A stretch of DNA of 64,000 bases from an uncultured Candidatus Saccharibacteria bacterium (GTDB lineage Bacteria > Patescibacteriota > Minisyncoccia > Minisyncoccales > GWA2-38-27). The notes beneath the pieces were generated by a model that saw nothing but the letters and a program-made list of their open reading frames with translations, was not told the origin of the DNA and did no database searches. Location of the stretch: positions 22,349 to 86,348 of the forward strand of contig CAYMZK010000002.1 of assembly GCA_964394985.1 (NCBI GenBank). Direction: 5' to 3'. Every line of letters begins with the position of its first letter. Position 1 is the stretch's first letter. The position numbers and the translations under genes are program-made. Below are positions 52,301 through 60,192 of the stretch, one piece after another.

Positions 52301-53722
52301 TCAAGTCACCCAGTATTTATTCTTAGTCATTTTATCTTTTTTCATTATAACCTGATCTCTTTCTTTTTGTGAAATTTTAGCTAGTTTATCTATTTCTTTT
52401 TCAGAAAATTTAGCTAATTCTTTTACCTTTTCTTCTAAAAATTCTTTATTGTTGTTTTTAGGATCATTTAAAACTTCGCCTAAAAGTATATCTAGCACTT
52501 TTCCCACTATTGGCCCAGATTTAACGTTTAATAACTTCATTACCTTTTTCCCGTCTATTTTAAGCATCTTAACCGAAATCGGATCTTTAGAACTCTTTTC
52601 TATTATATATTTCATATGACGCAGTTTATAGGGCTCTGCCTTGGGAACACCGGAACCAATTCTGTCAGCCATTCTAACCTGTAACAGTTCTTTAATGTTC
52701 TCTGGTCCCACCTTGCGAACTAAACGCCTGACAGAGGCCTCTGTGACCTCGTCAACATTATAATAAAACAGGTGATAGCGAACTAACTTCACAATCTTTT
52801 CTATTTCTTTTTTGGGAAACTTTAATCTTTCTAAAATCTTTTTAGTTATTCTAGCTCCGATCACTTCGTGTCCATAAAAAGTTGCCTTTTGACCAGCTCC
52901 TCTTTTGGATTTTGGTTTTCCAATATCATGTAACAAGGAGGCAATTCTAACTTCTTTGCTAAAGTCTTTTTTAGCAGCATACTTTAAAGAAAGCACCGAG
53001 TGCTCATAAACATCATAAATATGATGCTTAGATTGAGCTACTTTATATCCTTCTAATAATTCTGGAATTATATATTCTAATAACTTTAGCTTTCTTAACA
53101 TCTCTATCCCCTGATAAGCTCTTTCTGACATTATTATTTTAATAAGCTCGTCTCTAATTCTTTCTCTTGAAATAACTTTCATTAAAGAAGAATTTTTAAC
53201 TATTGCCCTAGCTGTTTCCTTTTCAATTTTAAAACCTAAAACAGAAGCAAATCTTACTGCCCTCATCATTCTTAAAGCATCTTCATTAAACCTTTTATTG
53301 GGGTCGCCAACGGCTCTAATTATTTTCTTTTTTAAATCCTTTTGGCCCTCAAACAGATCAACAATTTCTTTATCTTTTAGGGCTATAGCATTAACAGTAA
53401 AATCTCGACGAGACAAGTCTTCTTCTAGAGTTTTAGCCCATTTAATTTCATCGGGGTGTCTTTTGTCGCTATATTTAGCTTCTGTCCTAAAAGGAGTAAT
53501 CTCAACATCACCTTCAACAGTTACCGTTCCAAAATCATTATTACTAAAACTATTTGGAAATACTTTAATGATTTCTTCTGGGGTAGCGTTAGTAGTAATA
53601 TCCCAGTCTTTTGGCTGGACATCCATTAATAAATCTCTAACGCAACCACCAACCAAAAAAGCTTGGAACTTATTCTTTTCCAGTTTTTTTAAAATATCTC
53701 TAATTTTCTTAGGAAGAACCAT
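52301..53722 (-). CDS. cca: CCA-adding tRNA nucleotidyltransferase with an HD domain
   Basis: LVGGCVRDLLM...DWDITT head domain and LLHDIGKP. Confidence 0.88.
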   Translation of the reverse strand: MVLPKKIRDILKKLEKNKFQAFLVGGCVRDLLMDVQPKDWDITTNATPEEIIKVFPNSFSNNDFGTVTVEGDVEITPFRTEAKYSDKRHPDEIKWAKTLEEDLSRRDFTVNAIALKDKEIVDLFEGQKDLKKKIIRAVGDPNKRFNEDALRMMRAVRFASVLGFKIEKETARAIVKNSSLMKVISRERIRDELIKIIMSERAYQGIEMLRKLKLLEYIIPELLEGYKVAQSKHHIYDVYEHSVLSLKYAAKKDFSKEVRIASLLHDIGKPKSKRGAGQKATFYGHEVIGARITKKILERLKFPKKEIEKIVKLVRYHLFYYNVDEVTEASVRRLVRKVGPENIKELLQVRMADRIGSGVPKAEPYKLRHMKYIIEKSSKDPISVKMLKIDGKKVMKLLNVKSGPIVGKVLDILLGEVLNDPKNNNKEFLEEKVKELAKFSEKEIDKLAKISQKERDQVIMKKDKMTKNKYWVT

Positions 53723-53796
53723 TATCTAATCATATCTTAAAATAAGACGATTTTCAATTGATTTTTGCCAAATTTGTGCTAGAATAATAAAACAAT

Positions 53797-53873
53797 GCGC
53801 CTGTAGCTCAATTGGATAGAGTGTTAGGTTTCGGCCCTAAAGGTTGCAGGTTCGAGTCCTGCCAGGCGCACCA
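53797..53873 (+). tRNA. tRNA-Arg (anticodon TCG) with encoded CCA
   Basis: Cloverleaf read manually: acceptor GCGCCTG/CAGGCGC, anticodon stem TTAGG/CCTAA, loop TTTCGGC, T-arm GCAGG-TTCGAGT-CCTGC, then ACCA. Confidence 0.9.
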
Positions 53874-55202
53874 GTAAGGAATTTGCAAGGAGTTTCGGTT
53901 CGCCTCGCTTCGCTCGGCGATTATTTTGTACGGGATTTTGGGGGTAAAAACGAATTGGCGGTTTCGCAAAATATGGTTCGAGCCGATGTTTTTCAGAAAT
54001 GTTGTCATTTCGGATTTGTTTTGAGAGGAAAGTAGATTAGCGGCTTGATTCAAGGATTTTACGAACTCACGAGCCGGTTCGAGCCAAGACAATCCTTTTT
54101 GCTCAAAATCGGTGATTTTCTCGCTGAGCGACACTTTCTCGGAAAGCAAACTCTGTTTTTTGGCGGCGTATTCTTCTGTGGATAAAGCGTCTACCAAATA
54201 GATGTCGAGAAGTTTTGCTAACTTACTTTCCACGCTTGCCAGTTGTTCTTTCAAAACACTAACCTCGGTTTGTGCGTCCTCTCTCGCTTTATCCCGCTCT
54301 TGTTCCAACGCCGCCAAAACTTTTTCTGTGTCTTGGCTCGATAAAGAAACTTTTTGAAGAAATGTTTTTATCTGCTCGATCAATTCCTCCTCTCTCAAAT
54401 AATGTTTTTCTTGGCATAAACCTTTTTTCTTGGTGCAACGATAATAATTATGTCCTTTTTGAATTTCGGCAGTAATTGAGCAACCGCAAGAAGCACATTT
54501 TAACAAACCAAGAAAAGCAAAATTATGCTTTCTTACTTCTTGCACTTTTCCTCGCTTGCTTATTACCTCTTGGCATTTATCAAAAAGTTTCTTTGAAATT
54601 AACGGTTCGTGTTGTCCCTCGAAAATTTCCCGCTTCCAACGCATAAGCCCGATATAGAAAGGGTTAGTCAAAATTTTCTGAACATTGCTTACGGCAATTT
54701 TCTTGCCGAGATTACCACGCAGATTTTTATGTTCGCACCAATTTGCGAGAGATAAGAGCGTTTGGCTTCCGGTGGCGTACATTTCAAAAAGTTTCTTCAC
54801 TTTTAGGGATTTCTCTTTATCAATATCCACGCCTCTCGTTTTTGGATTATTGAGGTAGCCCACCGGAGCCCAACCGGGCCATACGCCGTTTCTAATTTTT
54901 TGTCGTAGTCCTCGCTTTACATTCTCTCGCAAATTATCTACGAAGTATTTGCTCTGTCCAAAAGCAATGTTCAGCATAAAAAGTCCTTGCGGTGTTGGCT
55001 CAAACCAAAAAGTGGGAAATTTTAGGGACTTAATCAAACCGCGATCTACAAAGTGGATAATTCTACCGCCATCTACGGAATTGCGAGCGAGGCGGTCTGG
55101 ATGCCAGCTCAAAATCCCTTCTGCTTTTCCTTTTTCCAAAAATGACAACATTTCTGAAAAATATCGGCTCGAACCACATTTTGTAAAAGAAAATTTTTTC
55201 AT
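53808..55202 (-). mobile_element. Large serine recombinase-family protein that appears N-terminally truncated; its 3' end overlaps the tRNA-Arg 3' half
   Basis: GILSWHPDRLARNSVDGGRII, FGQSKYFVDNLRENVKRG, a Zn-ribbon (CASCGCS...YYRC) and a coiled coil are present. The usual N-terminal catalytic-Ser segment (about 50-60 aa) is not encoded. Confidence 0.65.
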
Positions 55203-55350
55203 TTTTGTTTATTGCAGAAATTCTTGGGAATTTCTGTTTTTTGTTTTACTCTTGCATTTTCCCTTGATTTATTGTAATGTAATCCAGAAGACTAGGGCAT
55301 AGTGCTTAGTCAATCTGTACCTTGAAAACCTAATAAAGGAGGTAAAGAAA

Positions 55351-56439
55351 ATGGCGCACTGCCGAAAAACTCAGTTGAGTATATTTTTGACACATCGGTG
55401 CAACCTTCGATGTATTTATTGTTACGTTGGAGAGAAAGAACGAGATAAGTCAGTAATTGACTATGAGTTTGTCAAAAGAGGCATCGAGGATTTCTTTCAA
55501 AAGTATGATTCAAGGGAAATCCGTTTCTTTGCTACCGGAGAACCAACGCTTGAATTTGAGCTAATAAGAAAGATTAAAGACTGGACTTTCGAACAAGTGG
55601 GAGAGGATTGCAGATTTGAACTGCAGACGAACGGTTTTTTCTCAACTAAAATTGCTAAGTGGGTAGCTGAAAATATAGATATTGTTTGGATTTCCTGCGA
55701 TGGTCCACCAGAAATTCAGAATTATTATCGACCAACACCTGCAGGTCGACCAAGCTCAGATATTGTTGAGAAAAATATACAATATTTGGCTACGAAACCG
55801 ATCATGCTAGGGTGTCGGGCAACCGTAGGTAATCGGAATATGGAAAAACAGCGCGAGATGATTGAGTATTTTGCACATCTCGGTGTAAGAGCTGTAATGT
55901 CTGACCCCATGTTTTCTCCTGTTAGAAAATATTCTGGCCAGATTGTTGAATGTGAAGCCCTTGACCTACGGGAATATGCTGAACATTTTTTGGAAGCAAG
56001 AAGGTACGCAATTGAACAGGGTATATTCTATGGCAGTATATTAACTGTTAATTTTGATGAGGAAACAGAATATTTCTGTAGATCCTGTATTCCTTACCCG
56101 CATCTTACAGTTGATGGATATGTGTCAGCTTGTGATATGGCTTTTTCTGGCACAGATCCTACTATGAAAGACTTAATCTATGGTCGTTATATTTCGGAGG
56201 AAGACCGAATAGAATATGACCAAGAAAAGATTAGGTTGATTAAATCTCGAAGTGCTCAGAACATGCCTCATTGTCAGGGATGTTTAGCATTAAAGAATTG
56301 TGCAGGGGCCTGTTTGGGCGAAGCCTTGAATGAAACCGGAAGTATATTTGGGATCAAGCCACATGTTTGCGAAGTAATTCGTTACTTGGCTAAGAGGATG
56401 CCACTCAATCAGGGCTTGTATCCTTATCTTCATCCATGA
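55351..56439 (+). CDS. Radical SAM/SPASM-domain enzyme (no N-terminal extension)
   Basis: 362 aa with CNLRCIYC, ATGEPTL and C-terminal CQGCLALKNCAGACLGEA. SD AAAGGAGG. Confidence 0.85.
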   Translation: MAHCRKTQLSIFLTHRCNLRCIYCYVGEKERDKSVIDYEFVKRGIEDFFQKYDSREIRFFATGEPTLEFELIRKIKDWTFEQVGEDCRFELQTNGFFSTKIAKWVAENIDIVWISCDGPPEIQNYYRPTPAGRPSSDIVEKNIQYLATKPIMLGCRATVGNRNMEKQREMIEYFAHLGVRAVMSDPMFSPVRKYSGQIVECEALDLREYAEHFLEARRYAIEQGIFYGSILTVNFDEETEYFCRSCIPYPHLTVDGYVSACDMAFSGTDPTMKDLIYGRYISEEDRIEYDQEKIRLIKSRSAQNMPHCQGCLALKNCAGACLGEALNETGSIFGIKPHVCEVIRYLAKRMPLNQGLYPYLHP

Positions 56440-56476
56440 TAGAATAAAGGCATAAAACAAGAAAGGAGGCAAAACT

Positions 56477-57124
56477 ATGACAAAGAGATTGTATTCCGAG
56501 GACCCATACAAACAGTTCTTTGAGGCTGTTGTTGCAAAGATCGAGGGAAATAATGTCTGGCTCGATCAGACCTGTTTTTATCCTGAAAGCGGTGGACAGG
56601 TTGGAGATACAGGTACTTTAAATAACCAGAGAGTGACAGACACTCAGTTTGATTCAGAAAAAGATGTTGTTCATATTCTGGAATCCACACCAACTTTCAA
56701 AGTTGGTGATAAAATGGAAGGTCAGATTGACTGGGAAAGGCGTCACAGAATTATGCGTGTTCATGCCGCTTCTCATATTATGGAACATTTTTTGTTCCAA
56801 GTGTTTGGCCCCCTAAAACTAACTGGTTCACATCTTAATGAAAAGTATGACAAAAGCACTTACGAGTCAGATGAAAGGCTTGACCCTGAAAAGTTGGCAG
56901 AAGTTGAAAAAAAGGCAAATGAGTTTATCGCTCAAAGTCTGCTAATCGAGACTTCGCCAGACGAAAAAAGACCTCACTTCAGATACTGGAAGTGTGGACT
57001 AATTCAAATGCCCTGTGGCGGTACGCATCCAAAAAATACCAGCGAGATTGGTCCGATTAAATTAAAACGAGAAACTGGTGGTCGAGGACGAGAAAAGGTA
57101 ATAACATCTCTTCAGAAACCATAA
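56477..57124 (+). CDS. AlaX-type Ala-tRNA(Ala/Thr) trans-editing domain protein
   Basis: 215 aa with the HxxxH motif (HAASHIMEH) and CxxxH motif (MPCGGTHP) of the Thr/Ala-tRNA synthetase second additional domain. Confidence 0.8.
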   Translation: MTKRLYSEDPYKQFFEAVVAKIEGNNVWLDQTCFYPESGGQVGDTGTLNNQRVTDTQFDSEKDVVHILESTPTFKVGDKMEGQIDWERRHRIMRVHAASHIMEHFLFQVFGPLKLTGSHLNEKYDKSTYESDERLDPEKLAEVEKKANEFIAQSLLIETSPDEKRPHFRYWKCGLIQMPCGGTHPKNTSEIGPIKLKRETGGRGREKVITSLQKP

Positions 57125-57132
57125 CTTATTAC

Positions 57133-57172
57133 AAGCCCTTCGTGAAAAAAATTTTCACTTAGGGCTTTTTTC
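57133..57172 (+). terminator. Rho-independent terminator
   Basis: AAGCCCT...GTGAAAA/TTTTCAC...AGGGCTT stem followed by T6. Confidence 0.75.
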
Positions 57173-57392
57173 TTTCAAAGAGCAAAAGAATTCGCTGCCA
57201 AAGCAGTAAATTTTTCAAGATCATTTTCCTTGAAAAATTTACTGAAATGAGTTATTATTAACTCATAGAAAAACTTGAAATTGTCAAAGTTCAGGATTTC
57301 GGTTCGGAATTTCGTGGGGGGATTTCCTCGCCGCCGCAGGCGGCGAAATGCGTTCGGACTATTTTAAGAATACTGCTCAACCATCCTAAAAC

Positions 57393-58958
57393 TTAATTCC
57401 TTTGCACACCTACTATATCCCAAAAACCAGTTGCTTTTGATAAATGAACCGTAAGATATTTAGCCTCCTCTCCTTGGTTTAAATTTATAGTAACATGCAC
57501 ATAAGCAGATATTTCATTAAATAAATGAGCATGAACAATCAATATATTCATTGAAGAAAAAGAATAATTTTCTAGCTCTGTTTCAGAGCTTTTTATTTTA
57601 TTTTTAAATGATTCCGAGAAATAAGGATTATTTTCAACACTCTCATCAAAATTATCCATATTAATAAAATACCACTTTAGTCCTTTGCCAGTAGCGTCTT
57701 TTACATACCAAGATTTTGAATATTTAGTTTCTTCAAGATTCTCATAATACGATCCGTCTTCCCAAAAATCTCCATTTAAAATCTCATACTCAACCGATGT
57801 ATTCAAATTATAACTACCATCAGCATTCAAGTCATCAACATCTTGCTCAGTCGTCCTATCAACTTCAATACCATCCAATAAACAAAAAGGTGCTATTGAA
57901 AGAGGAACGCCATATTCATCAAGTAAATTACAAGATAAAGCGTGCTGGTGCGTGCCCACGATCTCCCATTTTCCATTTATTTTCTTGGCTATCCACTCAA
58001 CACCTATACCATATTCTTGACTACCCGCTAATCCCCGCATAAAGTCACCCTCTTTTTTTAATATCTTAACAACAATATCTGGATCATTTTCTGGATTTAG
58101 GATTGCCGAAATTTCCTTTAGAATATCGTCTTCAATGGTACTTTCCTGTAAAATCAAATTATTTATATTTATTTCTCCTAAGTTAACTATTTTCCCACCT
58201 GATACAAAGCGAGTGATTACTAAATATTCTGATCCGGACAAGGTTCCTCCTTTTACATGAAAAGATGTTTTTATAAATAAATCTTCTATTCCATCCTTAT
58301 TAAAATCTCCACGCCCAATCACAGAAACTTGATACATTGCACTATCGTCTTCTAATTTTATAGAAAAATCATTTTTCTTTTCTATAAACCTAATCGACTT
58401 ATTATATTCACGCCAGCTTAATCCTTCTGCTTTTGATCTATTATCTATGCCAATAATCGGTTCTACGGTTCCCGGGAAATCTTCAATCACATCCTTATCT
58501 AATATAAAATCGTCTATATAACTTATTTTAGAGCCAATAGCATCACCTAAATATTTAGGAATTACACAACTTTCTTTAAAAAAACCCTCATGCGCATTAC
58601 TAAGTGTACTTTCTGAACCGAAATCTTCTTTAACCGCCCAAAAATAATCCTCACAATTTCGAACCTTTCTTTCTTTTCTTGTTTCTTTATATCCCTTTAC
58701 CAAGATTAAGTCATTGTAGTGCCCGTTTTCTTTTAAGGTTTTTTTGTTGATTTCATAATCTTTATTTTTATCAAAGTTTACCATTTTTCCATCTTGAACC
58801 CATTTCACCGGATAAAGAGAAGTTTCATTATTTTTTGTGCTTTTAATTCTTAAGGTTTCAAAGTTTTGCCAAACAGCAAAGCCCGAAACTGAAATAGCTA
58901 AAATAGCTATAACTATTAAGATAACCCAGGATATTTTAGAAGATAATATTTTATTCAT
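57393..58958 (-). CDS. Hypothetical membrane-anchored/secreted protein with an FG-GAP-like segment
   Basis: 521 aa with an N-terminal TM helix and GRGDFNKDGIEDLFI. Confidence 0.5.
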   Translation of the reverse strand: MNKILSSKISWVILIVIAILAISVSGFAVWQNFETLRIKSTKNNETSLYPVKWVQDGKMVNFDKNKDYEINKKTLKENGHYNDLILVKGYKETRKERKVRNCEDYFWAVKEDFGSESTLSNAHEGFFKESCVIPKYLGDAIGSKISYIDDFILDKDVIEDFPGTVEPIIGIDNRSKAEGLSWREYNKSIRFIEKKNDFSIKLEDDSAMYQVSVIGRGDFNKDGIEDLFIKTSFHVKGGTLSGSEYLVITRFVSGGKIVNLGEININNLILQESTIEDDILKEISAILNPENDPDIVVKILKKEGDFMRGLAGSQEYGIGVEWIAKKINGKWEIVGTHQHALSCNLLDEYGVPLSIAPFCLLDGIEVDRTTEQDVDDLNADGSYNLNTSVEYEILNGDFWEDGSYYENLEETKYSKSWYVKDATGKGLKWYFINMDNFDESVENNPYFSESFKNKIKSSETELENYSFSSMNILIVHAHLFNEISAYVHVTINLNQGEEAKYLTVHLSKATGFWDIVGVQRN

Positions 58959-58959
58959 A

Positions 58960-59724
58960 TTAAAAGCATGAGGTAGATGAAGAATTACATGGATAAGCTG
59001 TTTCTTTCGCCGTTCCTTTATTATCTACGCAATAATAACTATTCTTTGAAACTAATTTAGCACAAGCCACCCACGTATTTGACTTGTTAGCTCCCCAAAT
59101 TATTTCAGAACTAATGTCTTGCAAGCCCTCTTTTGCATTTTTAGCATAATTGCTGTAATAAAAATTGTAATAACTGTCATCATTATCATAATGATACAAT
59201 TCCGCTCCAGCCCTCAACCCAGATAGCGTAGATTTAATTGATGCATCTTGTGATTTAGCTCTAGCGCTTAATAAAGACTCTTGAACTACTTCAAGGTTAT
59301 AAGAAAAATAAAAATCAACATCTCCTTGGCGCACCCACTCTCCTTTTTGTTTTTGATATCTTCCTTTCGCAACAATCATCAACGAGCCTGCCGAGCTAGT
59401 ATCAGTTAACGGAATCCCAAAATCTTTTTGAAGCTGTTCTTCGGAAGGATTAAGGGCTACTAAAAAATTTAAAACATCATCTTTTTGATCAAAATAAGCA
59501 TTCCCTTGCCAATCGCTAGCAATTAATTCAGGGTATTCATCCTTAATATCGCTTATTATATCCGGTAGTTCAGCGTCTTTTACGATAAGCTCTTTTTCAA
59601 AAACAAAAAATAGAAGAAAAAGAGCAACTCCAACAATAATAATTATCCCAAAAATAATCAATAAAATTGTCTTTATATTGTTACTAGAATTAGTATTTGG
59701 ATTAAAATTTTCAAGATTGTCCAT
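58960..59724 (-). CDS. Hypothetical membrane-anchored protein with a pilin-like C-terminal region
   Basis: 254 aa with an internal TM helix. The ARAKSQDASIKSTLSGLRAGAELYHYDN segment resembles the helix of type IV pilin-like proteins. Confidence 0.4.
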   Translation of the reverse strand: MDNLENFNPNTNSSNNIKTILLIIFGIIIIVGVALFLLFFVFEKELIVKDAELPDIISDIKDEYPELIASDWQGNAYFDQKDDVLNFLVALNPSEEQLQKDFGIPLTDTSSAGSLMIVAKGRYQKQKGEWVRQGDVDFYFSYNLEVVQESLLSARAKSQDASIKSTLSGLRAGAELYHYDNDDSYYNFYYSNYAKNAKEGLQDISSEIIWGANKSNTWVACAKLVSKNSYYCVDNKGTAKETAYPCNSSSTSCF

Positions 59725-59823
59725 AATTTTGTTTTAATTTCTAAAATTATTTTATTATATCATCAAAATTAGACAGTTGCCAAACGTCGTTTATCCGGCG
59801 GCCACTAGAAAGCATTCCGCCCA

Positions 59824-60192
59824 TTATTTTTGGCATTTTTTACAAAGCTTTGCTTCTGGATAAATTTTAAGCCTTGCTTCGGGAATATTTTTATCACAAT
59901 TCTCACACTTACCATACTTTCCCTTTTTTATCTTTTTTAAAGCCTCGTTAATAGATTGCAAACGAAGCTCTAAGTCGTGCTCTACCGGAAGTAAATTAGA
60001 ATAACGCTCTACTTGATCTGCAGCATCCTCTAAGAAGCTACCGCCAACAGCTCCACTTGATTCTGGAAATTTAGTATCCCAATCATCTTTTAATTTATCA
60101 TCTTTTTTAGCAAACTTCGTAAGTTCTACCTCTATTGCTTTCTTTTCTTTTTCAAGTTTTTTCTTAAGTTCTTCTTGTAATTTCTTGTTCAT
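59824..60192 (-). CDS. DksA/TraR-family C4 zinc-finger protein
   Basis: C-terminal CENCDKNIPEARL...LCKKCQ. Confidence 0.8.
   Translation of the reverse strand: MNKKLQEELKKKLEKEKKAIEVELTKFAKKDDKLKDDWDTKFPESSGAVGGSFLEDAADQVERYSNLLPVEHDLELRLQSINEALKKIKKGKYGKCENCDKNIPEARLKIYPEAKLCKKCQK

Follow-up and report, generated by a model that had tools for sequence, protein, structure and literature searches.

An inserted island at the tRNA-Arg gene

The window analyzed here is a 64,000-nt stretch of DNA (contig C2, positions 22349–86348) from the genome of an uncultured Candidatus Saccharibacteria bacterium, referred to below as G000, which is a metagenome assembly of 709 kb in 16 contigs with a GC content of ~33.5%. 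It contains an island of ~3.5 kb, 53870–57376, inserted at the tRNA-Arg(TCG) gene and carrying what is left of a large serine recombinase (LSR) gene together with intact genes for a radical SAM/SPASM enzyme (rSAM) and an AlaX-type tRNA deacylase. The features of the island are given below in window coordinates; L139 is a metagenome locus with an intact relative of the element, and G001 and G002 are genomes of the same genus as G000.

53797–53873, plus strand: tRNA-Arg(TCG), called by ARAGORN and Rfam tRNA
53868–53869: left crossover core GC, attL-like junction J1, placed by reference to the empty site of G001/G002 and to J1 of L139
53870–54010, plus strand: arm A, P'-type, homologous to arm A of L139
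53808–55202, minus strand: LSR remnant, 464 codons open; Pfam Resolvase (part), Recombinase and Zn_ribbon_recom
55154–55156: deletion junction, from blastn against L139
55351–56439, plus strand: radical SAM/SPASM enzyme, 362 aa, intact; PF04055
56477–57124, plus strand: AlaX-M-type tRNA deacylase, 215 aa, intact; NF040865, C-terminal part of PF01411, PF07973
57133–57270, plus strand: terminator hairpin of the AlaX gene and two AT-rich hairpins; the same stretch is kept in L139 and L142
57290–57376, plus strand: arm X', diverged, P-type, from by-eye alignment to the X' end of L139; right core GC at 57375–57376

The tRNA-Arg locus was compared with that of 10 related genomes, of which two belong to the genus of G000 and eight to its family or order; as in the other samples used here, the genomes counted include kin, so that counts are not independent. 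Nine of them, including both genomes of the same genus, have an empty site, with a CCA-adding enzyme gene, tRNA-Arg(tcg), tRNA-Ala (called in three), a DksA-like gene and a homolog of a 756-aa protein. At these nine loci, the LSR, rSAM, AlaX and two further window proteins, p521 and p254, have no match save one antisense to the tRNA itself, and G000 is longer at the site by 5.95 kb. The rSAM and AlaX genes were found in 0/38 other genomes of the family, and blastn returned no other copies of the island within the G000 genome, LSR paralogs excepted. The GC content over 53874–57370 is 39.9%, compared with 33.0% for the rest of the window, a value reached by just 2.3% of 1316 genome-wide 3.5-kb windows and in agreement with the 0.40 of the contigs bearing L139. 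The original prediction, made from the letters of the DNA, had noted the GC shift by eye, called for relatives with tRNA-Arg free of the insert and let the recombinase open reading frame (ORF) run into the tRNA gene; all three points hold, the ORF lying antisense over 66 nt of the tRNA.

The tRNA-Arg genes of G000 and G001 are the same up to ...CCAGGCGC, after which G000 continues with ACCA-GTAAGG and G001 with TCAAAAAAGG; foreign DNA therefore begins at the discriminator base and supplies the encoded CCA. The tRNA is native through 53869, and its discriminator A and CCA (53870–53873) come from the element.

It is highly improbable that the region is no insertion at all and represents either ancestral DNA that the relatives have lost or a chimera produced by assembly or binning. 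In its favor, the genome is a 16-contig metagenome assembly, and an internal deletion junction described below falls at a branch point of the Logan contigs, the assembled contigs of sequencing runs (the source run and runs X1–X4) from which junction support was taken. However, an independent assembly of the source run bridges both the left boundary (record 1, 52500–54461) and the right boundary (record 8, from 57327) without differences, nine of ten relatives are empty, the three genes occur at another tRNA in L139, and the shift in GC content was confirmed.

A 452-bp deletion in the recombinase module

Within the LSR remnant, the Pfam Resolvase match covers only profile positions 51–145 of 145, while the Recombinase (PF07508, 64.1 bits) and zinc-ribbon (PF13408, 33.8 bits) matches are both over their cut-offs. 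In a protein alignment (A2), the remnant lacks ~49 N-terminal residues, including the catalytic-serine motif 'YARKS' that is kept in 6/6 relatives, and the ORF opens with ~21 codons of junction sequence, which do not belong to the recombinase. The gap to the divergent rSAM gene measures 148 bp. The missing catalytic-serine segment and the short gap had both been pointed out in the original prediction, and the refuting outcome that it named, a full-length alignment with intact homologs, was not obtained. Thus, with the Recombinase and zinc-ribbon domains in place and the catalytic N-terminal domain with its nucleophilic serine gone, the gene is the remnant of a family member and not a working copy.

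The intact relative explains how the remnant is built. L139, L140 and L141 are a single locus in three samples, on contigs with a GC content of 0.40, and contain, in this order, tRNA-Leu, a full-length LSR gene, rSAM and AlaX, with identities of 79%, 91% and 89% to the three window genes. The same order at a different tRNA shows that LSR, rSAM and AlaX travel together. The layout of the intact copy is tRNA, A - LSR - A'. X - rSAM - AlaX - X', in which A/A' and X/X' are long inverted repeats. By blastn, window positions 53849–55154 correspond to L139 4963–6268 and window positions 55156–57289 to L139 6721–8827. The 452 bp missing from the window (L139 6269–6720) hold LSR codons 1 to ~57, the upstream region of the LSR gene, the distal arm A', the internal junction J2 and arm X. 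A leftover of the twin-repeat structure is seen in the window as a 49-nt inverted repeat, 53962–54010 and 55140–55188, the inner 49 nt of arm A thus recurring inverted at the far end of the remnant.

The remaining 421 aligned LSR codons contain no stop, and their ratio of nonsynonymous to synonymous divergence (dN/dS) from L139 is 0.117; the deletion is therefore young relative to the divergence of the window from L139. The junction coincides with the Logan branch point mentioned above, and records 2 and 3 of the source run overlap there by 30 nt. We considered whether an inversion across the 49-nt repeats could restore the LSR and rejected this by eye on account of a stop codon in the flipped frame (TAA, 53945–53947) and of the lack of an N-terminal domain upstream. 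The stretch 55179–55247, upstream of the rSAM gene, also occurs in the source run on contigs with other flanks, at about four times the depth; probably a related, more abundant element shares it.

Element ends and junction structure

In L139, the three junctions can be read side by side. J1 is tRNA..G-GCAC-CAGCGAGG, J3 is ..CAAGATAGT-GCAC-tatatg, and the reverse complement of the internal junction J2 is ..CAAGATAGT-GCAC-CAGCGAGG, which has the pattern of a putative attL, attR and attP, respectively. The same composition was found letter-exact in 5/5 loci compared in this way: J1 is tRNA, core and A; J3 is X', core and flank; and the reverse complement of J2 is X', core and A. The flank past J3 of L139 is a LAGLIDADG ORF, and in G000 this ORF stands directly after tRNA-Leu(taa); the tRNA-Leu of G000 is therefore an empty site for the L139 element.

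In the window, arm A provides the CCA of the tRNA, a terminator-like hairpin (53905–53920) and, on the minus strand, the last LSR codons. At the right end, the by-eye alignment of the X' ends of the window and L139 gives ..GTTCG(G/A)ACTATTTT(A/C)AGA(A/T)A(C/G)T-GC, window positions 57352–57382 reading ..GTTCGGACTATTTTAAGAATACT-GC-TCAACC. The right flank past the core starts with TCAA, the same four bases as in the empty site of G001/G002 (G001 attB, ..CCAGGC-GC-TCAAAAAAGG). With the GC core at 57375–57376 and the TCAA flank, the element is therefore 53870–57376. Its absence from relatives and its hybrid junctions around a short core place it among integrative elements. Contigs in the four runs X1–X4 join 57367–57373 to 53868–53900, which is the X'.A junction predicted, in relatives of the element. 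A 'skips 2077' joint in X2, one side of which is 20 letters long, was left out of account, as were parts without coverage.

The original prediction had instead proposed an imperfect direct repeat, just inside the tRNA and near the right end, as the attachment sites. This did not survive the comparison. Local alignment of 53874–53961 with 57271–57392 and with 55189–59850, in both orientations and with real-sequence controls, recovered only a 15-nt core, AGGA(G)TTTCGGTTCG, with a score of 23, against scores of up to 23–26 in one set of controls and a mean of 21.6 (maximum 26) in another. The 10-mer TTTCGGTTCG is found at just these two sites of the genome, the word having been picked after the fact. 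With scores no higher than background, we rejected direct-repeat att sites; the two stretches belong to GC-rich hairpins within arms A and X' and are not duplicated target sequence. The perfect inverted repeat reported near the right end is real, 16 nt at 57204–57219/57229–57244 with a second AT-rich hairpin at 57250–57270; it is internal to the cargo and conserved in L139. An Rfam scan at E up to 1 returned the tRNA plus one sub-threshold antisense match and nothing else.

Beyond the right core, the stretch that separates the island from the DksA-like gene (57393–59724) is occupied by p521 and p254. In relatives, this place contains tRNA-Ala or is empty; G000 has its tRNA-Ala(ggc) and tRNA-Ala(tgc) genes at other positions of the genome. 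For p521, there is no Pfam or NCBIfam match and no homolog in the family genomes (0/38), and of p254 the C-terminal domain alone has relatives elsewhere, in 18/38. We considered both as parts of the element and rejected this, given their position past the core, their host-like GC content and the relatives of the p254 C-terminal domain elsewhere. They may have settled earlier at the same tRNA-linked variable spot and since have adapted to the host.

A recombinase family with an internal inverted attP

LSR homologs were collected at E ≤ 1e-30 from a sample of 201 genomes of the order, G000 included. They are present in 76, with up to 7 matches per genome. Among the 30 best loci, which were surveyed, a convergent tRNA gene lies no more than 150 nt from the 3' end of the LSR gene in 24, the tRNAs being of many kinds, and inverted repeats of 66–188 nt flank the LSR gene in 24, with identities of 74–100%, mostly 92–100%. 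A second repeat pair, X/X' (105–486 nt, 93–100% identical), starts a few bases from the distal arm and encloses 1–9 kb of varied cargo. This second pair adjoins the first in 7 of the 12 newly fetched loci that were evaluable (at least 4.5 kb of room), in 5 previously seen loci and in E3, one of two further LSR copies of the G000 genome. These two copies, E2 and E3, are 45–47% identical to that of the window:

C2:136888–138432: E2, intact LSR, with 115-nt inverted repeats
C16 into C1: E3, intact LSR, abutting tRNA-Gln; the contigs overlap by 55 nt within the LSR gene

Each is bracketed by inverted repeats of 115–139 nt with 99–100% identity and abuts a tRNA 3' end or fragment. The E2 region (C2:136031–138771; L002/L103) contains tRNA-Leu(taa), the LAGLIDADG ORF (C2:136090–136857; LAGLIDADG_1, LAGLIDADG_3), an orphan tRNA 3' fragment and E2; the fragment ends in CCA and mismatches the tRNA-Leu 3' end. 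In the E3 region (C16:1–3829 and C1:1–1040), the cargo between 87%-identical X/X' repeats includes, as identified by eye, an XRE-type regulator and an HNH-like ORF. Partial X-like copies are also present near tRNA-Asn (C6) and tRNA-Gly (C7).

When reverse-complemented, the middle junction A'.X of the intact relative is identical to the circle junction X'.A, which means that the element has, in its interior, a second copy of its attP in inverted orientation. This candidate site separates the recombinase module from the cargo module. It fits a functional second site, through which the element would invert or would integrate either way round, and alternatively fits a scar left when an LSR cassette and a cargo cassette formed a cointegrate. 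At one locus (L116, G097:C13:2057–4799), an N-terminally truncated LSR with 138-nt arms points away from the adjacent tRNA-Gly, unlike LSR at the other loci; a flip of the inter-arm segment would give such an arrangement. In the literature on LSR elements with tRNA genes, on Patescibacteria and on genomic islands, we found no description of a layout with an internal inverted attP.

The cointegrate view can be taken further: the A-LSR-A' unit alone would be self-mobile, and X...X' with rSAM and AlaX, a separate and non-autonomous cassette, would have a palindromic site and would have inserted at the attR of that unit, so that the internal attP would be a functionless scar. Each module indeed has its own inverted repeats, with A'.X as a hybrid of both, and the LSR genes of the window and L139 have a synonymous divergence of 1.34, compared with 0.38 for rSAM and 0.67 for AlaX. 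This higher divergence of LSR than of the cargo points to module exchange. In addition, the contigs of runs X2 and X3 match 2.1 kb of the cargo at ~97% identity but LSR only in short pieces at or above the 88% floor, and 5 of the 12 newly fetched loci have the LSR repeat pair without the second pair. Nevertheless, we regard two independent cassettes as rather unlikely. No lone cargo cassette with X'/X ends was seen at a tRNA, the ends X' and A look by eye like quasi-symmetric halves of one attP, and the loci without the second pair have a more diverged first pair (91–99%) and may be decayed copies. L142 was tried as a free-standing cargo cassette and rejected: it has no X/X' arms and is a copy that lost LSR. 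In L150, 178-nt perfect inverted repeats (64–241 and 2295–2472) end the 2472-nt contig and enclose an rSAM fragment and a whole AlaX gene; they could be a cassette boundary or an assembly artefact.

The cargo: a radical SAM/SPASM enzyme and an AlaX deacylase

The assignments of the two cargo genes in the original prediction were upheld by Pfam, NCBIfam, cysteine motifs and structure matches. In rSAM, the CxxxCxxC motif (C17/C21/C24) is present and invariant in 17 homologs, as are the SPASM cysteines (C246-x9-G256-x4-C261, C308-x2-C311-x5-C317-x3-C321 and C340), C246 nearly so. The family, with conserved termini (MAHCRK... and ...LYPYLHP), comprises 334 database proteins at E ≤ 1e-5, ~364 aa each, with a patchy distribution over Patescibacteria, Chloroflexi, Clostridia, Bacteroidia, Chlamydiae, Planctomycetes and archaea. 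The predicted model has a predicted local distance difference test score (pLDDT) of 83.7, and its nearest folds are CteB and the anaerobic sulfatase-maturating enzyme (anSME), at a template-modeling (TM) score of 0.73.

In AlaX, the HAASH (HxxxH) and CGGTH (CxxxH) motifs align to the zinc motifs of the nearest solved chain, 2e1b (AlaX-M; E 2e-35). Both zinc motifs, part of the N-terminal domain of alanyl-tRNA synthetase (AlaRS) and tRNA_SAD are thus present, as in AlaX-M proteins. With dN/dS values relative to L139 of 0.116 for rSAM and 0.094 for AlaX, both genes are under purifying selection (0.09–0.12). The host AlaRS carries its own editing signature, and AlaX is therefore not filling a gap. 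The open frame of this AlaRS (C4:50058–51788) is just 587 aa, with the catalytic core and tRNA_SAD; typical bacterial AlaRS proteins are much longer.

One reading of the cargo is that rSAM is a maturase of peptides or proteins, akin to those of ribosomally synthesized and post-translationally modified peptides (RiPPs) or to anSME, with its substrate encoded elsewhere, and that AlaX is an unrelated passenger aiding the editing of Ser/Gly-tRNA(Ala). The best NCBIfam matches of rSAM are the PapB, nif11-type and SCIFF maturases and anSME, its folds are those of CteB and anSME, and AlaX is near 2e1b. rSAM shares with anSME, CteB and PapB the CxxxCxxC motif and the full seven-cysteine SPASM motif and, as in anSME, there is no RiPP recognition element (RRE) and a length of ~365 aa. 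However, rSAM lies far below all curated NCBIfam cut-offs (PapB 115 vs 340, SCIFF 74 vs 425, anSME TIGR03942 75.4 vs 349.45) and has its own conserved termini, and its neighbors point to small-molecule or amino-acid chemistry. The first strand of the model starts at residue 8, with no N-terminal RRE. Small ORFs in 55189–55360, 56400–56500 and 57110–57395 lack an ATG plus ribosome-binding site and are not conserved in L139, and a precursor peptide was rejected; the original remark that no precursor-like small ORF stands by the rSAM gene was correct, none credible being found. By scores, RRE and precursor ORF, rSAM falls outside the RiPP maturases of the PapB, SCIFF and CteB type, and by score outside anSME, though the fold is similar. 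AlaX adjacency in five phyla, the other neighbors described below, the kept editing signature of the host AlaRS and the fact that 0/38 relatives need AlaX all speak against a maturase, which we judge unlikely.

Recurrence of the rSAM-AlaX pair

As the original prediction had suggested, we looked for recurrent adjacency of the two genes, in 59 genome loci with an rSAM homolog (an AlaX homolog being counted within 6 kb) and in 12 metagenome loci. AlaX is nearby in 8/59 genome loci, across phyla: four in Patescibacteria with the same adjacent order and one each in Anaerolineae, Chloroflexia, Nanoarchaeota and Chlamydiales. Among the metagenome loci, AlaX stands beside rSAM in 9/12, some of which duplicate genome loci. 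In the Chlamydiales locus (L076), a LysE-type amino-acid exporter lies between rSAM and AlaX. Other recurrent neighbors of rSAM are short-chain dehydrogenases/reductases (11 loci), SET-domain proteins (6), AMP-binding enzymes (5) and arginyl-tRNA synthetase (ArgRS; 4), and all four genomes with an rSAM-adjacent ArgRS hold two ArgRS genes. The recurrent neighbor clusters cl26 and cl27 gave no family in Pfam. At four independent loci (L035/L144, L039, L088/L148 and L150), rSAM is 5'-truncated and AlaX is whole, and the reverse was never seen.

Two loci resemble the window in kind. In Anaerolineae (L041:3383–8101), two tRNA-Phe(gaa) genes enclose AlaX, two unassigned ORFs, an rSAM homolog and a membrane protein, with GC content below that of the flanks; the arrangement resembles a tRNA-bounded island of independent origin with cargo of the same kind. 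In a member of Saccharibacteria (L087:123–2337), a CCA-adding enzyme gene and tRNA-Arg(cct) are followed on the opposite strand by a partial rSAM homolog (69% identical), a neighborhood similar in kind to that of the window, though from a different class.

The tRNA-centered neighbors (AlaX at 8 loci, ArgRS paralogs at 4, and the CCA-adding enzyme gene with tRNA-Arg at L087) could also be accommodated by a tRNA-bound pathway, in which an aminoacyl-tRNA synthetase would charge the tRNA, rSAM would alter the attached aminoacyl moiety and AlaX would set the product free, so that AlaX would be biosynthetic and not an immunity factor. SPASM enzymes are not known to act on aminoacyl-tRNA. AlaX outlives a truncated rSAM at the four loci, which fits immunity better than a pathway step, and L087 may be simply another tRNA-end insertion. 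Such a pathway therefore appears improbable.

A proposed life history of the element

Taken together, the window most likely contains an immobilised small LSR-driven integrative element with an intact two-gene cargo, which may serve to make a non-canonical amino acid and to remove it from tRNA. The element would have integrated by site-specific recombination at the last two acceptor-stem bases (GC) of tRNA-Arg(TCG). Arm A replaces the tRNA discriminator and adds the CCA and a terminator hairpin; it restores the tRNA end, so tRNA-Arg stays whole. The 452-bp deletion took away the catalytic N-terminus and the promoter of LSR together with A', the internal site and X, and this copy is no longer self-mobile. 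LSR is predicted to act at these sites in intact relatives.

In the cargo, rSAM may convert an amino acid into a non-canonical analogue, and AlaX may strip the analogue off mischarged tRNA, which would make the pair a portable producer-plus-immunity module. This reading is suggested because a LysE exporter occurs in one homologous cluster, aminoacyl-tRNA synthetase paralogs are neighbors of other members of the rSAM family and the deacylase is kept after decay of rSAM; judged from gene context, its chances are about even.

Several observations weigh against the overall interpretation. At the right end, the flank agrees with the empty site for 4 nt only, and X' was aligned by eye and not by blastn. 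The X'.A joints come from assembled contigs and may be the internal junctions of relatives rather than circles, and the second repeat pair is absent in the five newly fetched loci noted above. As for the cargo, the nearest folds and profiles of rSAM (CteB, anSME, PapB) are peptide- or protein-modifying enzymes, and AlaX scores 170.6 bits with NF040865 (AlaXM), below the equivalog cut-off of 300, so that it appears to be a relative of AlaXM and not an equivalog. There is no AlaX near rSAM in 51/59 genome loci, and the window contains no transporter or regulator gene. The ArgRS baseline, 1 of 101, is a rough guide, having been obtained with a different threshold and clade, and the 1e-20 threshold missed many divergent ArgRS genes including that of the host.

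Relationships to known systems and implications

Elements and prophages driven by LSRs are exemplified by XisF, the SCCmec Ccr recombinases and the serine integrases. The island shares with them the Resolvase-Recombinase-Zn-ribbon-long C-terminal order of the recombinase, the position of the recombinase gene at the edge of the element, and attL- and attR-like hybrid junctions that have a short core in common and lack a long duplication of the target. In contrast to these systems, the target here is the extreme 3' end of many tRNA genes, with the CCA supplied by the element; long inverted-repeat arms (66–188 nt) and the putative internal inverted attP are present; and the elements are tiny (3.5–10 kb), with no excision-factor gene recognised and, in the window copy, no catalytic serine.

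The yeast 2-micron plasmid encodes FLP, a tyrosine enzyme, and has two inverted repeats. Similarly, the circle predicted here would have two identical inverted recombination regions and two unique segments, one of which encodes the recombinase. It differs in having a serine recombinase and no replication gene and in being integrative, and inversion is only hinted at by the flipped L116.

Among cargo-carrying elements at tRNA genes, the tycheposons of Prochlorococcus are flanked by partial tRNA copies and use mostly tyrosine recombinases, with an LSR in 27/937 (bioRxiv 10.1101/2020.12.28.424599). They resemble the present elements in carrying cargo at tRNA genes of streamlined genomes, in islands that grow by the tRNA and in leaving decayed integrases behind, and they differ in that the elements described here always use an LSR, have twin inverted repeats and have no tRNA fragment at the far end. 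No second tRNA-Arg fragment was found in 53.6–57.6 kb or in the genome near the island, which thus does not fall among the tycheposons.

With respect to the cargo, a recent paper shows that AlaX-family deacylases (BesG, AlfB) act in self-resistance, shielding cells that make non-canonical amino acids against mistranslation, and are markers of the gene clusters concerned; the legend of its Extended Data Fig. 4B names a radical SAM neighborhood (PMC13149037, Nat Chem 2026). The likeness consists in a free-standing AlaX beside an enzyme modifying amino acids (here putative) and, compared with a four-gene cluster, in the exporter of a homologous cluster (LysE in L076). The window pair differs from those clusters in having two genes only, in lying on a mobile element and in belonging to an episymbiont-sized genome. 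It is possible, though we advance it tentatively, that all these features form one picture, in which bacteria of the candidate phyla radiation host miniature LSR elements on tRNA ends, with an internal attP, swappable cargo and a 2-micron-like circle, and rSAM plus AlaX as an antimetabolite-plus-immunity pair.

For the recombinase family, att-type junctions are precisely defined, and an intact copy for reference is available along with dozens of natural variants; the targets of the family are universally conserved tRNA ends. The island illustrates gene gain and loss at tRNA-linked islands in bacteria with genomes of 0.7 Mb and few known transfer routes. The pair provides a two-gene case for deacylases that mark pathways of non-canonical amino acids, with an rSAM/SPASM family that is uncharacterised and widespread, and loss of the producer with retention of the deacylase is the decay pattern that immunity would predict. 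If the wider picture advanced above is true, the two-site circle would permit inversion, integration in either orientation and exchange of cargo, and orphan AlaX copies left after decay of rSAM would serve as community resistance genes.

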